Positions 14,865-51,755 of a DNA stretch of 64,000 nucleotides are shown here, one piece after another; position 1 is the first letter of the stretch, and every line of letters begins with the position of its first letter. The DNA is taken from NCBI GenBank assembly GCA_963753345.1, contig CAVWBU010000019.1:32001-96000 (forward strand). Reading direction: 5' to 3'. The notes under the pieces are model-generated. The model had not been told where the DNA came from, made no database searches, and was given only the letters and a program-made list of their open reading frames with translations. This DNA comes from an uncultured Fibrobacterota bacterium (GTDB taxonomy: Bacteria > Fibrobacterota > Chitinivibrionia > Chitinivibrionales > FEN-1185). A program made the position numbers and the translations under genes.

Positions 14865-15046
14865 TTGGGCGTTCCCCGCGCCGAAGGCGCGGGTCGGTTC
14901 TCCCTCCGGTCTCGGGCTCGCCCTCGGGCCGCCTCGGCCCTATGCATTTTGTGGAGACGTAGCGTGGTACGTCTCCACAAAATGCCGGGTCCGGACGGCA
15001 CCGCTCTCTAGAGCGGCCTCCGGTCGCCCCTAACGCGCGGCATAAG
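14865..15046 (+). repeat. Dispersed repeat module B carrying a perfect 18-bp palindrome (14944-14985)
   Basis: TTGGGCG..TCCGGTCTCGG..GGGCCGCCTCGGCCCTATGC..GGGTCCGG.CGGCACC shared with copies at 26.8, 47.5, 48.0, 53.6 and 60.4 kb. Confidence 0.85.
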
Positions 15047-42512: not shown

Positions 42513-42574
42513 AAATGGTTCTTTCCATTCTCATGTGGCAAATCGCGGGAACGATTCGGAAAGGGGTTGCTCTT

Positions 42575-42592
42575 GTGTGACTTCTTTCACAA
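42575..42592. promoter_or_regulatory. Rex- or CRP/FNR-family operator
   Basis: gTGTGA-cttctt-TCACAa about 60 bp upstream of hydB. Confidence 0.6.
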
Positions 42593-42694
42593 AACAAGGT
42601 CTAAGTAAAGAAAGCTCAAAATAATTCATTGCTGGATTTAGTTAAAGATAAAGAGGGATGCAAGACGAGATGAAGAATTAATACAAAAGAGTTC

Positions 42695-42895
42695 GGTGGG
42701 GGCACCGCTTCGCGTTTCCCCCTGGCCCCCGGCTTCCGCCGCACCTCAATTGCCACGTAACAATGCATCAAGCGGTGCGGCGGCGATCCGGGGCACACCC
42801 CCTCCAGCGGAAACACGCACGAGGCGCATCGCTTGCGCAATGCGCGTGTCGTGTTCCCGCAACGCCTTCTATAAGGTATGCCGCTTCGCGGCGAT
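42695..42895 (-). repeat. Dispersed repeat module C
   Basis: Near-identical reverse complement of the 15220-15321 part; shares its terminal portion with 62140-62317. Confidence 0.85.
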
Positions 42896-42986
42896 GAAAA
42901 CACACGCAGAGGACATCCATGTGAATTTATATTTACTAAAGGCAAAGAGATATTAAGCTCAAGCATATTTCTAAACTGAGGCGTTT

Positions 42987-45900
42987 GTGAATATCGCAGG
43001 TATTCTGACAAAAATCTCTTCCTGGGAAGAGTTCAGGCGGGAAGTGCGCGGCCTGAGCGACAAGGGAAAAGGCGACGCCTTTGAACTGCTCACCCAGTAT
43101 TACTTGAGGATTGAGCCGCGGTATGCCACAAAGCTTTCAAAAGTCTGGCGCCTTTCCGAAGTGCCGTTAAGGATCACGGAAAAACTCCGGCTGCCTCCGG
43201 CAGACAAGGGCATTGATCTAATCGCCGAGACAAAAGACGGTGAATACTGGGCTGTCCAGTGCAAATACCGCGAGGACCAGACACATTCGCTTACGTGGCG
43301 CGAGCTTTCCACCTTTACCGGCTTGGCCTTTACGGTCTGTAAAGGAATCTCCTTCGGCCTTGTCTGCACCAATACCGAACGATTCACCGGAGTTCTCAAA
43401 CATCAGGATAAAATCGGGTTCTGTACGCTCGATACCTGGATAGATCTGGATAAAACATTTTTCAGGAACATCCGGGCATTGCTGTACGCACCGTCCGGAA
43501 AAGATAACGCCCCTGCGGCCGCGTCCGCACCAGAAAAAAGCCATCACTGAAGCCTCCCGGCATTTTGCAAAGCGCCGCCAGAAACGCGGAAAACTCATAA
43601 TGCCCTGCGGCACGGGGAAAAGCCTTGCAGCATTCTGGATCGCCAGAAAACTAAAAGCCAGAAAAATCCTTATTGCAGTGCCCAGTCTTGCGCTTATCAG
43701 GCAGACCCTTAAAGTCTGGCTCAGGGAGGCAATTGCCCATAACCAGCCAATAGAATGGCTGTGTGTGTGCAGCGATGAAACCGCCGGAAAAATAGGGCAG
43801 GATGATGTGTCGGTGCTCAAGCAGGATCTCGGCGTACCGTGCTTTACAAATCCAAAAGAAATCGCGGCAAAGCTTAAAACACAAGCGCAGGGCCTTACTG
43901 TTGTTTTTACCACCTACCAGAGCGGCAAAGCCATTGCCGATGCTTCACGGAAGACCGGCTACTCATTCGACCTGGGCATAATGGACGAGGCGCATAAAAC
44001 CGTTGGCGCAAAAGACAAACTGTTCACGCATCTGCTTTACGACCGGAACATTACAATCCGCAAGCGGATTTTCATGACCGCAACGGAACGCCGGTACATA
44101 GGCCAGAGCGACGAAATCGCCAGCATGGAAGACGAGAAAATGTACGGCGACACCTTTTCCCTTCTGTCCTTCAAGGAAGCCCTTGAATACAAACCGCCCA
44201 TACTGAGCGATTACCGGATCATCACCATCGCGGTTTCGCGGGATGAGGTCGCAGACCTCATAAAAAAGAATCTGTTTGTAAGGCCCGACAAAGGCCCGTG
44301 GGACCGCGAAGTCGAGGCGGAAATGCTCGCCTCGCTTGTTGCGCTTCGCAAGGCAATGAAGAAATACCCCATCAGGCACGCGGTCTCCTTCCACAGCAGC
44401 ATACAACGGGCCAGGGTGTTCCAGGAAAACAGCGACGCATTTACAAAAGCGTTCCCCAAATACGGCAAGCTCGAAGCTTTCCATGTTTCCGGCAAAACGC
44501 CTACGGGCACGCGCGCAAGGACACTCGACGATTTTAAAAATGCCTCCCGCGCCCTGATCACCAATGCCCGGTGCCTCACGGAAGGCGTGGACGTGCCGGA
44601 CATAGACTGCGTTCTGTTCGCAGACCCGCGTAAAAGCACCATAGACATCGTGCAGGCAGTGGGCCGGGCGCTCAGACCGGCAAAGGGAAAAGCGCGGGGA
44701 TACGTTGTTATCCCGATTCTCCATGACTCGCGGATGAAAAGCGAGGAATTCCTTGAAAGCGAAGAGTTCAAGGAAGTGCTGACGACGCTACGGGCGCTGG
44801 CGTCGAATGATGACAGGATTATCGAGTTTTTCCGGGCAGTGAGCAAGGGAAGACGGGTTGGAAGGGGCGGGATTGTTGAGTTTGATGTTGATGAAAGATT
44901 GGGAAGAAAGATTAAGATTGATGAGTTTGTTAAGGCGGTGGAGTTGAAGTGCTGGAGCAGGTTAGCGAGGCTGAGTTGGAGGGAGTTTGAAGAGGCGAGG
45001 GGGTTTGTACATAAATTGAATCTCAAGAGCGAAGCCGAATGGCGTGCATATTGCAAAGGTCGGATTCAAGGTAAGCCTAGGAAACCCGATGATATTCCGG
45101 CACACCCAGGTCACATTTATCGCGGCAACGGTTGGGTTGGCATGGGCGACTGGTTAGGAACGGGAACCATTGCACCACGACTACGGGTATACCGTCCATT
45201 TAGGCAAGCACGAGCCTTTGTGCACGGTTTGAAACTTCACGACAGAAAGGAATGGAGCGCATATTGTAAAGGCCAGCTACGAGGCAAACGCAAGAAACCA
45301 AATGACATTCCAGCCAGTCCAGTTAAGACCTACTGGGGCAAAGGTTGGATTTCTATAGGTGATTGGCTGGGAACAGGAGCAATCGCCACATTCATGCGTA
45401 AATTCCGCGCCTTTAAGCTGAGCACGTTCGTTCTCGCGAGGTTTGGAACTCAAGAATGTAACCGAGTGGCATGCATATTGTGGAGGCCAGCTACAAGGCA
45501 AACGCCCAAAACCAATTGATATCCCGAGTAATCCGCAAAAAAGTTACGTGGGAAAAGGATGGGTGAATTGGGGTGATTGGTTAGGAACAGGAAATGTGGC
45601 AAATACATTACGGGTTTTTCAACCTTTCAAACGCGCCCACGCCTTTGCCCGCAGTTTGAAGCTAAAGAGCGAAGCTAAGTGGCGCTCATATTGTGAAAAT
45701 AAGTTACCGGGTAAACCAAAAAAGCCAGATGATATTCCGATCTATCCAGGAGATATATACCATGGGAAAGGTTGGGTTGGTATTGGCGACTGGCTAGGAA
45801 CAGGAACAATTCCGCCACGTTTACGCACATTTCGGCCATTCAAACAAGCCCATGCTTTTGCTCGCCGTTTGAAACTCAAGAGCGGAACTGAGTGGCGTGC

Positions 45901-46495
45901 ATATTGTAAAGGTCAGCTTAAAGGCAAACCTAAAAAACCCGATGATATTCCGGCTAATCCAGATAAGTATTACCGAGGTGAAGGTTGGGTTAGTAGGGGT
46001 GACTGGCTGGGTACAGGAAGAATTGCAGATCATTTACGCATCTACAGGCCGTTCAAACAAGCACGCGGCTTTGTGCGTGCTTTGAAACTAAAAAGTGGAG
46101 ATGAATGGAAGGCATATTGCAAAGGCCAATTACGAGGTAAAACAAAGAAACCAGATGATATTCCGGCTCATCCAGAAAGAACTTATTGCAGTAAAGGGTG
46201 GAATCGTATGGGCGACTGGCTGGGAACGGGCACCATTGCACCCGGTCTAAGGGTATATCGCTCCTTCATACAAGCTCGCGCTTTTGTCCATAGATTGAAA
46301 CTAAAAACCGGAGATGAGTGGAAAACCTATTGCAAGGGTCTGCTAGAAGGCAAACCAAGAAAACCTCATGATATTCCAATTGCCTCGGATCAGGTATATC
46401 GAGATAAAGGCTGGCGAGGTATGAAAGACTGGTTGGGAACTGAAAAACGTATTTTTTCAAAAAGAAAAAATAGAAATCAAAGTAAAGAACTTTAA
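42987..46495 (+). CDS. Mrr-type nuclease + SF2 DEAH helicase + seven 71-aa repeats; one gene split by two +1 frameshifts (about 43485 and 45421)
   Basis: GDAFE..DKGIDL..AVQCK nuclease; [29 protein letters not shown] and QAVGRALR helicase motifs; repeated W..YC..KP.DIP..P...Y...GW...GDWLGTG. Confidence 0.85.
44977..46441 (+). repeat. Intragenic tandem array, 7 x 213 bp
   Basis: DWLGT codons recur at about 45145, 45358, 45572, 45785, 45998, 46211 and 46424. Confidence 0.9.
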
Positions 46496-47064
46496 GCAAC
46501 GCCCCTTCCATGGCACTTTTTGTACTTCTTCCCGCTACCGCAAGGACAAGGATCGTTTCTGCCGACCCTGGGTAAGAGGGATTGGTTTTGTTTCATTTTT
46601 TCTTCGTGGCCTTTAACAAAGTCGATGCACTCTACGGACGGCATTCTAAAAGAAAAAACCGTCTGGCCGTCTTTATTTGTGACCGCAAAATCCCCGCTAT
46701 TTATTATGTCCATTCCTATGAGAACATCCGTTCCTGTCAAAACCCCCTGAGTGACTTGCAATATCGGAATCACAATCTTATTCGGTAATCCAATACTCAC
46801 ATAGTAGGTGGGAACCGTATCCGTACCGCTTGCAGTATGGACTCTTGCCATGCCGGTAGGCTTGAGATTGCAGGACTGGACAACATTTCTTGAAATTACT
46901 GTTCGTGTTGCTCCCGTGTCCCATATTGCCTTAAAGGGCTTGTGGTCGCCTTTAGGCGGAGGGGATTTAGGATCGAACGGGGAACCAATATGGGCAGGTG
47001 TTGCTAAGACATTGGCTATTTTGTCAAGACGTGCTGTAAAACCGAAGACCTTTACTTGGGGCAT
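46492..47064 (-). CDS. Retropepsin-like aspartic protease with C-terminal SEC-C motif
   Basis: [34 protein letters not shown]. Confidence 0.85.
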
Positions 47065-47075
47065 CTAGAAAAGGC

Positions 47076-47312
47076 CTATATAAAAGCAAAGCGTGAGTGG
47101 TAGGTCGCGGAAAACGACTCGTCTCCGGGCACACATTTTTGAACCAGAAAGGTACCGATTTCGCAATTTTCTTTTGTCTTGTTGATAGCTTCAAGTTCTG
47201 AGGAATAATCGCCAATTACTTGGCAATCCTTGATTACAATAAACCGGCCATTGTATTTCTGGACCAGTTCATTTTGATGATCAAGATAATATTGAAATTC
47301 TTTTTCTAACAT
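47076..47312 (-). CDS. Small protein (DUF5678-like) paired with the protease
   Basis: 78 aa, ELVQKYNGRFIVIKDCQVIG; GAGG RBS; 11 bp upstream of the protease gene. Confidence 0.7.
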   Translation of the reverse strand: MLEKEFQYYLDHQNELVQKYNGRFIVIKDCQVIGDYSSELEAINKTKENCEIGTFLVQKCVPGDESFSATYHSRFAFI

Positions 47313-47490
47313 GACCTCATCTCCCTAAATGGAAACGCTCTATCAACTCTTGCTCTATTTGTTATTTCGGTTGGTTCAACAAGATATTTAGCGGTGGTTT
47401 CAAATATAGTATAATTCTGTGGCCTCATATGATGAATTTCAAGATGCCCGCCATGCGCTTACGAATTTTCGATCACACTCCTGTTGTATG

Positions 47491-47634
47491 TCTTTCGCGC
47501 CAGGCCGGAACGTAGGCCGCGTTAGAACGCGGTGCCGCCCGGACACGCCGCGAAGCGGCCTAGTGCCGTGGCGGCCGGAGGCCGAAGGCCGAGACCGGAG
47601 CGAGGGCCGCCGCTGCAAAGCAGCGGGGCGCCCA
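47491..47634 (-). repeat. Dispersed repeat module B
   Basis: Reverse complement reads TGGGCGCCCC..TCCGGTCTCGGCC..TCCGGGCGGCACCGCG..CCTGGCGCG. Confidence 0.8.
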
Positions 47635-47875
47635 GAATTTTTATTCTGGTCGAGTATGGTATTTATTGATTCAATCCCTTCAAACATCTTCTTCAAGTTA
47701 TTTTACTCCTCAATAAAAACCATTACAAGAAATAGAACTTCACAAAATCACCAAGAAAGAACACCTATCACAACCTCTGCGGAATGCCGCTTCACGGCGA
47801 TTATTCAGTAGGACACAATCTCTTTCTTCAATTATTGTATGTCAATGAATTGTGAACATACAATCAAGCATTTGT

Positions 47876-48143
47876 CTTCTGCGCTTGCGCCAGGTTGGAC
47901 TGAAGGGGACGCCAGAGCGCATTGTCACTTCGTTCCCTAATGTATGGAAATAGCGCTTCGCGCTTCACAATTAAATTGTTTGCCTTATGCCGGCCGACGA
48001 CCCTTGGAAGCACCCGACGGGGTGCCCCGCCGACAGGCATAGGGGCGGACCGGCAACGAGGCGAACAGCCGAGCCCGGAAGGAAGACCCCGCCCAACAGG
48101 AAGGGCGGAGCAGGTTCCGCCGCCGTCTTCGGCGGGGCGCCCA
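47876..48143 (-). repeat. Expanded module B containing module D
   Basis: B ends and CCCTATGC core, with internal CGACCCTTGGAAGCACCCGACGGGGT matching 26507-26545 and 60550-60580. Confidence 0.7.
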
Positions 48144-48204
48144 TTATTTTCTTAATAACCAGAAAAAATCAAGAAACTTCATCAAGAAAGAACCAAATAC
48201 TCCC

Positions 48205-49978: not shown

Positions 49979-51019
49979 TTAAGAATGTGATAGCACTCTA
50001 GTCAAGACGTCGACAAAGACTTTTGAATCGAGAAAGTAGTTCGGATATGCTCGGCGCAATGAATCCAAAGAATCAACCGACACAAGTACAGCATCAGTAG
50101 CAGGTCGATTTGTGTTGGACTGTTCCACTGATAAGTATTCTTCCGAAGCCTTATTAAGGTCTTCCTTTTTAAAACCGGCAACCTGAACGCGGTTATTAAC
50201 AGGGTCAAGGTTGAGAAGCAAATAATCTGCATTTTTCGCATTTTGTGTTTCCGAAACCTGTAATGCATACCCAAAACCTTCAAGGCGTCGTGCGACCTGA
50301 ATTCGATTTGCGTAATCGCGTAGCTCGTTTAGTAGTTCTGTCTTTTGAGTCGGGGTATCGGGGACAAGAGTAGTAGCTTCCTCATTAGCCATTACGCTGC
50401 CCATGAGAGAAAAAAAACGTTTCCAGTTTTCATCTCCAATGCTTGATTTTAATGCTTGGTTAGTAAGAGTACCAACCGTTTCAACTGTGGTGGCCCACGC
50501 GTGTTGAAGGAAAGTTCGGATTTGAATTTCGATCTTCAGGTCATTGTAGTGCTTATATTTTTTATCACTGTAGTAACGATAGACAAGATGGATACCACGA
50601 TAACCAGATGGTTTCGGGTTTCTGATATAGTCTTTCGCTCCAACTAATTTGTGTTTTAAGTGACCCTTCTTATACATACTCACGATCTTATCTACGCTCC
50701 TGATATCTTTCACAATGGCTCGACACCCGCCGATGTCCTGCATTTGAGGCAGCTTCATACTTGGTAGCAGCTCTAATTTTAACTTAATAGAATAGAGGCG
50801 TTTGATACGTTGGGCAATAAGCACATGTGGGTCAACTTGCCTTGCTTTTGAGCGAAGCCCATTTTGAAATACATTTAGAGGATAGTAATGGCATGCACGC
50901 CAATTGTTGATCACTTGGAGGGTTTCTTCAAGCAAAGCTGGCCGAGTATGCGGATTAACTAGCTCATCCCCAGCAGATTCTACCCGAGCTCTTGAATATT
51001 GTAGGGTTGCCCATTCCAT
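49979..51019 (-). CDS. Fused CapRel-like toxSAS (RelA/SpoT synthetase + C-terminal antitoxin domain)
   Basis: WRACH, QRIKR, MQDIGGCR, GYRGIHL, EIQIRTFLQHAWAT; C-terminal AYPNYF (YXXY). Confidence 0.8.
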   Translation of the reverse strand: MEWATLQYSRARVESAGDELVNPHTRPALLEETLQVINNWRACHYYPLNVFQNGLRSKARQVDPHVLIAQRIKRLYSIKLKLELLPSMKLPQMQDIGGCRAIVKDIRSVDKIVSMYKKGHLKHKLVGAKDYIRNPKPSGYRGIHLVYRYYSDKKYKHYNDLKIEIQIRTFLQHAWATTVETVGTLTNQALKSSIGDENWKRFFSLMGSVMANEEATTLVPDTPTQKTELLNELRDYANRIQVARRLEGFGYALQVSETQNAKNADYLLLNLDPVNNRVQVAGFKKEDLNKASEEYLSVEQSNTNRPATDAVLVSVDSLDSLRRAYPNYFLDSKVFVDVLTRVLSHS

Positions 51020-51171
51020 TCTTTGGCCTGTCAGCCTTTGCTGGTCTAAGAGATCTTTGTTACTCGGTCCCCGGCCTTGTATTTCGCACCATTCATTTCA
51101 TTCTCAATGGATAATATAGGTGCTACCGCTCCCCATTGTCAAAGCGGAAAATACGGCGGCGCGCCGTCAAC

Positions 51172-51507
51172 CTAATACACGCACGCATCGAGGATTGCCA
51201 GCACGTCGGCCAGAAGATGCGGCGGAGCCTTGTCGATGAACTTTGCGCTTCGCGCGACAAAATCCACCGACTTGACCTGGTCGACCATGACAAAACCGGT
51301 GAGGACGCAACTCTCGGGGACCTTGACATGAAAAGGGATTTTTCTGTCTGTGTTTGTAAGGGGACAGACCATGGCGAGGCCGGTTCGCTGATTAAAGAGA
51401 TCGTTACTGATGACGAGAGCTGGCCTACGGCCTCTTTGTTCGTGTCCCGACTGAGGATCAAATGTCAGAGCAACAAAGTCTCCTTTGCGAGGGGTGTAGT
51501 GCGGCAT
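51172..51507 (-). CDS. mazF: MazF/PemK endoribonuclease toxin
   Basis: FDPQSGHEQRGRRPALVIS; DQVKSVD; TGATG overlap with mazE. Confidence 0.92.
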   Translation of the reverse strand: MPHYTPRKGDFVALTFDPQSGHEQRGRRPALVISNDLFNQRTGLAMVCPLTNTDRKIPFHVKVPESCVLTGFVMVDQVKSVDFVARSAKFIDKAPPHLLADVLAILDACVY

Positions 51508-51755
51508 CACCAGGTCTCCCTGCCTCTTGGTTTGCCCCACTGTTCTTCCAAAGGTTTATGGCGGGCGGGCATCCTGGCAGCAAGGTCTTTAAGACGATAC
51601 CTGCGCCGGGGAGGGGTGGCGTGTTTTACGACAATTTCACCCTTTCGTACGGAAATGTCGACTTCCTCTCCGACTACGATGCAGGCTTTGCGAAGAACAT
51701 CGCGGGGGAAGCGGAGCCCCTGGCTGTTGCCCCATTTCTGAATTTTCGTGACCAT
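51507..51755 (-). CDS. mazE: MazE/AbrB-type antitoxin
   Basis: KIQKWGNSQGLR; C-terminal WGKPRGRETW. Confidence 0.92.
   Translation of the reverse strand: MVTKIQKWGNSQGLRFPRDVLRKACIVVGEEVDISVRKGEIVVKHATPPRRRYRLKDLAARMPARHKPLEEQWGKPRGRETW

Follow-up and report, generated by a model that had tools for sequence, protein, structure and literature searches.

The Type ISP enzymes LlaBIII and LlaGI (PDB 4xqk, 5ffj) consist of an Mrr nuclease, an SF2 ATPase and a further segment, in this order, with a variable C-terminal part on the conserved motor. Passages of PMC7049714 describe a methyltransferase-TRD unit that stimulates the ATPase as well as binding the target, passages of PMC2790903 report that double-strand breaks require two head-to-head sites and that the motors cut at random, distant sites, and the part of PMC2790908 that concerns LlaGI reports that cutting requires D74, D78 and K94. 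The gene described here, from a 64,000-nucleotide stretch of the genome of an uncultured Fibrobacterota bacterium (the window), resembles these enzymes over about 600 residues, with the domains in the same order and the catalytic residues kept, but its family has neither methyltransferase nor TRD and carries 6–17 tandem repeats in their place. Because the methyltransferase-TRD unit is absent, the gene is not a member of Type ISP; it probably works like a Type ISP enzyme with a different reader. As part of the overall reading that we favour, at slightly better than even, it would be a one-polypeptide nuclease-translocase derived from Type ISP, in which the repeats replaced the methyltransferase and TRD domains.

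A motor-nuclease resembling Type ISP enzymes

As assembled, the gene opens on the plus strand with an ORF (42987..43550) that encodes an Mrr-family PD-(D/E)XK nuclease domain (Pfam Mrr_cat_2, E 7e-17) and is cut early by a frameshift. This is followed by an SF2 helicase-like ATPase and a helical segment (43600..44976, plus strand; ResIII, DEAD and Helicase_C), the latter aligning with the region of LlaBIII that directly follows its ATPase. Equivalents of LlaGI residues E38, D74, D78, Q92 and K94 are all present in the window nuclease. Within the family these E-D-D-Q-K residues are conserved in 74–78 of 79 aligned members (77–78 of 79 for the equivalents of D74, D78 and K94), and the Walker A/B and motif VI residues are invariant (79/79). 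The intact protein of a congener, L001, matched LlaBIII residues 31–649 (E 1.9e-57), and LlaBIII was also the best structural match to its predicted model (Foldseek E 7e-37), the next match after the ISP enzymes being the Type IV motor-nuclease SauUSI. The match to LlaBIII ends at residue 649 of 1578, and beyond that point repeats continue to the stop codon. No cognate methyltransferase was found nearby, as no DNA methyltransferase family was matched by any of the 96 ORFs scanned (95 of the 141 around 16 loci, several of them on short contigs, and one further ORF of the slot described below).

Because of two additional bases, the window copy of the gene reads as three ORFs. One lies between nuclease and helicase (approximately 43484..43487, plus strand), where alignment with the L001 gene leaves a one-base gap, and the other, at about 45418-45424, is apparent from the spacing of the repeats (427 = 2x213+1) and breaks the reading frame inside repeat 3. 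The first-pass annotation described the array correctly but missed both frameshifts. The gene is a single ORF in L001, P0020 and most relatives; L001 and P0269 (about 98% identical) are in frame across the first break, and a base is likewise missing there from one 151-nt contig (depth 2) belonging to a relative, P0270 not being counted as independent support. The sequencing runs that were found contain 5–7% of the words and leave the second break uncovered. Elsewhere in the assembly 4 of 137 conserved orthologues look frameshifted, or about one per 43 kb, a figure obtained from seven multi-frame cases after removal of two tandem paralogues and one long insertion, with 12 flagged stops outside the count. 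Two frameshifts in 3.5 kb exceed this background, and local clustering is possible. The window copy has been broken twice, either by mutation, in which case it is a pseudogene, or by assembly error. Another gene of the window, a hypB-like gene at about 37400 on the minus strand, also carries one base more than its counterparts in three congeners and stops prematurely.

The repeat array and its exchange at an accessory locus

The array (44977-46468) consists of seven 71-aa repeats with a period of 213 nt, all on the plus strand and delimited by alignment: repeat 1 at 44977..45189, repeat 2 at 45190..45402, repeat 3 at 45403..45616 (214 nt, including the second additional base), repeats 4, 5 and 6 at 45617..46255 (213 nt each), and repeat 7 with a basic tail and the stop codon at 46256..46495. 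Repeats 2–7 are 52–66% identical to repeat 1 in pairwise comparison. The near-invariant scaffold that had been noted earlier (F..A..F...L.L, W..YC, KP.DIP, GW, DWLGT) and all three variable patches were found, by eye, in the alignment. The array had also been described as AT-richer than the helicase part and well diverged at synonymous sites, and both descriptions were borne out: GC is 46.8% in the array and 53.2% in the helicase part (GC3 35–44% and 63%, with a genome GC of 55.9%), and pS between repeats is 0.69, near saturation.

Helices are predicted at repeat positions 4–13, 19–26, 44–47 and 56–60, with a short turn at 67–69, and AlphaFold2 models repeats 4–7 with four short helices per repeat (mean pLDDT 94, pTM 0.67). 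On the predicted structure the patches fall at the start of helix 2 (18–20, 23), at the start of helix 3 (42–47) and in a linker (64–68). The repeats are strongly basic, with a mean net charge of +4.3 per repeat. A Foldseek search of the repeat model against the PDB gave no match at E 0.001, a search against solved folds gave a best VIA Z of only 2.6, and a profile search against PDB sequences gave no match; these outcomes establish neither a new fold nor the absence of relatives. PADLOC holds no family for the repeats, PHROGs gave only weak, unnamed matches, a plasmid search gave none and a phage search one weak match. A second array was not found in the same genome, and promoter and terminator scans gave hits at chance level only.

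Comparison with relatives showed that arrays are exchanged whole. L001 carries the same motor at the same locus, its DNA being 90% identical to the window across the motor and both flanks, but its array is unrelated, comprising six shorter repeats of another subtype (GC 36.9%), and the similarity ends at 45012, in the first helix of repeat 1. Similarly, P0020 matches the window at 95% identity across 459 helicase residues, and of its nine repeats none exceeds 67% identity to a window repeat, though the last one ends like the last repeat of the window; P0036 and P0050 are 99.7% identical in the N-terminal part and have unrelated arrays. Whole repeats have been gained or lost within clusters formed at 90% (clusters 2, 5, 9 and 10), whereas arrays are stable in clusters 4, 6 and 8, and chimeric repeats change identity between conserved scaffold segments. 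Arrays were non-collinear in 7 of 8 pairs at a threshold of at least 90% and in 74 of 81 at a threshold of at least 80%, a biased tally, since identical arrays are merged into a single cluster.

The gene is accessory. A hydrogenase operon and an ABC-F gene flank the variable slot (42520..48200) in which it lies, and it is present in one of the five other genomes of the genus; among congeners the slot is empty in three, holds a 786-aa BNR/Vps10 ORF in one and the same motor with the other array in one. Convergent with the repeat gene, and absent from the L001 slot, is a gene for a retropepsin-like aspartyl protease with a SEC-C motif (46492-47064, minus strand). A GC-rich, partly palindromic intergenic element at 47494-48083 recurs in the window at 14865, 26706, 53635 and 60318, and also stands beside the repeat gene in L001. 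A second accessory slot (49979-51755, minus strand), unmatched in L001, holds a RelA_SpoT-domain ORF and, by eye, a small MazEF-like toxin-antitoxin gene pair. At four Verrucomicrobiota loci (L002, L003, L004 and L016) the repeat-helicase gene has a Fic-domain gene beside it or close by.

The repeat family and its fusion partners

The family search matched 2669 of 7405 candidates, and among the 120 relatives listed, a list that favours long arrays, there are 6–17 repeats per array; the variation in repeat number proposed in the first-pass annotation as a check was thus readily seen, and together with the array replacement and whole-repeat gain and loss above it upholds the description of the array as modular and swappable. 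In most relatives the ORF is long and intact and the catalytic residues are conserved. A profile search gave 5687 representatives at 50% clustering, and the 146 that were new among the 150 of these listed formed a second protein set: 51 were ISP-like, 60 consisted of an array only (many may be fragments) and 35 were of other kinds. Pfam PF14882 INT_rpt (Integrase repeat unit, formerly PHINT_rpt) matched the window repeats weakly (E about 1e-3, 19.2–19.9 bits against a gathering cut-off of 26.5), and its model has 55 positions whereas the window repeat has 71 residues. However, the cut-off was exceeded by 16 of the 30 homologues in a domain scan that took 28 of the 35 representatives of other kinds together with P0024 and P0121, and INT_rpt is annotated on 17–67% of the members of the nearest ESM Atlas clusters. 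On these profile scores the window repeat is best read as a divergent long form, or a relative, of INT_rpt. No paper was found on this architecture or on the function of PF14882 in a search of a largely open-access literature; in PMC8078820 the family appears only in a table of modelled repeats. The Type ISP motor and the INT_rpt repeat are each known, and their combination without a methyltransferase appeared in no paper found.

The fusion partners include an integrase, a GIY-YIG domain accompanied by a NUMOD-like module, SNF2 together with a methyltransferase, a Vsr-like nuclease, SAP and a treble-clef finger, and the majority of those identified act on DNA; ankyrin and PilZ/TPR domains also occur and count against a DNA reader. 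Five proteins (P0024, P0240, P0264, P0180 and P0212) have the mirror architecture, an N-terminal array followed by an SNF2-type helicase, and P0024 and P0240 also carry a methyltransferase. In the P0016 lineage (P0026, P0041 and P0283, named Chlamydiae-related) 10–12 repeats, about 64–85% identical between proteins, are kept in order, unlike most arrays of the family. At L019 two arrays on opposite strands are heavily frameshifted, probably through sequencing error. In P0239 and P0259 a GIY-YIG or Vsr-like nuclease stands mid-array with repeats on both sides, an arrangement like that of homing endonucleases.

A selfish, homing-type nuclease, whose array would recognise a long site present in alleles of its own locus that lack the gene, could account for the repeats of P0239 that flank GIY-YIG beside a NUMOD-like module, for the empty alleles in three congeners and for weak fold matches to giant-virus helicases (best named match E 1.4e-3). 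We consider it very improbable, as single-site homing should conserve the reader and one slot holds unrelated arrays in two congeners, and as ISP motors cut at random, distant sites. The array might instead sense phage proteins in the way of TPR, ankyrin or WD40 repeats and trigger the nuclease for abortive infection. NLR-like Avs systems join an effector, a STAND NTPase and variable repeats, and the same domain order, the fixed scaffold with variable patches, the accessory slot, the Fic, HicA or Phd neighbours at 5 of the 16 loci and the ankyrin or TPR fusions of some relatives would all fit such a sensor. Yet the NTPase here is a DNA-translocating SF2 DExH motor and not a STAND NTPase, the repeats are strongly basic, the patches are only 7% aromatic and 7% aliphatic, and most identified partners act on DNA, so a protein sensor seems to us decidedly unlikely. 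The position of the array in the protein, its net charge, the types of residue in the patches and the fusion partners are hints that the ligand may be DNA.

Patch positions and a possible DNA reader

The first-pass annotation had proposed that the hypervariable positions form a recognition code and had suggested per-site entropy and dN/dS as checks. In 641 homologous units the patches were indeed variable, but entropy did not single them out: patch positions 19, 20, 43, 45, 46 and 68 lie at 3.0–3.6 bits, a range that positions 5, 9, 24, 32, 35, 38, 54 and 71 also reach. For dN/dS, values of about 0.5–0.8 were obtained at the patches (Nei-Gojobori) and none above 1 was found among the sites listed; because synonymous sites are saturated the ratio is uninformative and makes no case for positive selection.

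The patches stand out by the pattern within as against between arrays, and not by entropy alone. In 628 units from 80 proteins, mean Fst was 0.075 at 11 patch positions and 0.245 at 35 other variable positions, the scaffold set having been picked after the entropy table had been seen and the statistics ignoring relatedness of positions and sequences; homogenisation within arrays was lowest at 67, 43, 45, 46, 23, 68, 19 and 42. Arrays thus homogenise scaffold positions and not patch positions. In the second set of 146 representatives the ten lowest values fell at 43, 46, 23, 19, 45, 47, 68, 67, 20 and 18, that is, at nine of the positions originally listed and at position 23, which was absent from that list and is patch-like, as is, more weakly, position 56. 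Position 29, outside the patches, had an Fst of 0.07 in this set, which counts against the pattern. In seven collinear arrays of one lineage (P0086 being excluded for an internal deletion) patch residues that differ between paralogous repeats persisted between orthologous ones, with a retention of 0.63 compared to 0.39 for 39 other variable positions; the p values of this comparison are overstated because neither positions nor sequences are independent.

Residue types were examined in 2214 units from 254 proteins, after 12 collinear or duplicate arrays had been dropped. R, N, Q, H, S, T, Y and D made up 64% of patch residues and 38% elsewhere, and K and E 12% compared to 33%; scaffold positions favour K, E and A. 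In the same units positions 19, 23, 43, 45, 46 and 56 covary within one repeat, and no patch-to-patch covariation was found between neighbouring repeats. Packing between repeats as a cause of patch variation was set aside because adjacent repeats showed no such covariation. A small recurring alphabet like that of TALE RVDs was not found, positions 42–47 showing 503 different 6-mers among 628 units. Thus, about ten positions per repeat, drawn from 18–20, 23, 42–47 and 64–68, show special evolutionary behaviour, and in these comparisons the patches show the pattern of specificity-determining positions. The earlier proposal of a nucleic-acid reader is therefore sustained as far as modularity, exchange and specificity-like patches are concerned; its recognition code is not, as neither dN/dS above 1, nor a small alphabet, nor a match to a solved fold was found.

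Two further explanations bear on these positions. Were the patches merely tolerant surface positions of a decaying array, the equal variability of other positions and the two frameshifts of the window copy would be expected. Such drift is scarcely credible given that the majority of relatives have long, uninterrupted ORFs and keep the catalytic residues and that in cluster 3, which belongs to the lineage of the retention test, the patches are less variable than the scaffold surface (43 of 127 columns segregate in the patches, compared to 104 of 165 in the scaffold). Alternatively, the array could bind DNA without reading its sequence, as a basic tether or sliding clamp, or could sense DNA structure or modification, with the patches tuning affinity or marking recombination boundaries. 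The high positive charge and the want of a dN/dS above 1 agree with this, as does cluster 7, where six alleles showed no patch effect (34 of 96 patch positions varying and 48 of 126 scaffold surface positions), although the arrays varied far more than the motor (28 of 659 sites). Sensing of modification would also suit the structural match to SauUSI and the neighbour ORFs free of methyltransferase matches, since a modification-dependent enzyme needs none. What a non-specific tether leaves unexplained is that in both protein sets the same ten positions escape homogenisation, that patches are retained between orthologous repeats, and that whole arrays are replaced on motors 95–99.7% identical; we regard this group of explanations as unlikely.

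On balance, it is somewhat probable that the array reads the sequence of double-stranded DNA and loads a methyltransferase-free, ISP-type motor-nuclease onto foreign DNA, the host being spared by absence of the site. The array occupies the position of the target-recognition unit of LlaBIII, which favours this reading; arrays of 14–17 repeats would imply very long sites, which counts against it. Beyond the architecture, we infer every step. Small basic four-helix repeats would align along double-stranded DNA, a few bases each being read by the linker and by helices 2 and 3 at their N-terminal ends, and the whole array would bind one long or composite site. Binding would switch on the ATPase, and translocation would bring the nuclease to cut, as in LlaBIII. 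In place of protection by a methyltransferase, the host would probably be spared because its DNA has no such long site, or no two sites in convergent orientation. Specificity would shift by swapping, duplication or deletion of repeats through conserved flanks, and the likely role would be defence against particular phages or mobile elements. If so, a Type ISP-like nuclease can run without a methyltransferase.

A bolder proposal, possible but doubtful, would make the INT_rpt-type repeats a new kind of programmable DNA reader, composed of 62–71-aa units that would each read a few bases by a largely portable code, possibly through 19/23, 43/45/46 and 64/67/68. By recombining such units, bacteria would then direct a methyltransferase-free motor-nuclease to new long foreign sequences, giving a protein-encoded target memory that integrases and homing-type nucleases would use too. 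To our knowledge, few natural protein repeats read DNA module by module. The family is large, folds confidently and had no solved-structure match in the searches run; its natural experiments, that is, motors 95–99.7% identical with different arrays and alleles with entire repeats added or missing, make the question of a code directly testable.

Several known systems share features with this array. STAR repeats are described in PMC11417379, where the passages searched do not name the PF14882 family. Like C2H2 zinc-finger, TALE and STAR arrays, the array is a tandem series of modules that keep one scaffold, vary at a few polar residues and differ in number and order; unlike them, its unit has 71 residues, four helices and three patches that comprise about ten variable positions, and it is fused to a motor-nuclease and lacks a small recurring alphabet. 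The unit differs from that of TALE and STAR arrays, which has 33–35 residues and one variable di-residue. With NUMOD-type homing endonuclease modules and HA-repeat (PF03457) helicases the array shares small helical modules on nucleases or SF2 helicases, although the window repeats matched no PF03457 or NUMOD profile at E 0.1. Of these systems, zinc-finger or homing-endonuclease modules resemble the pattern more closely than TALEs do.
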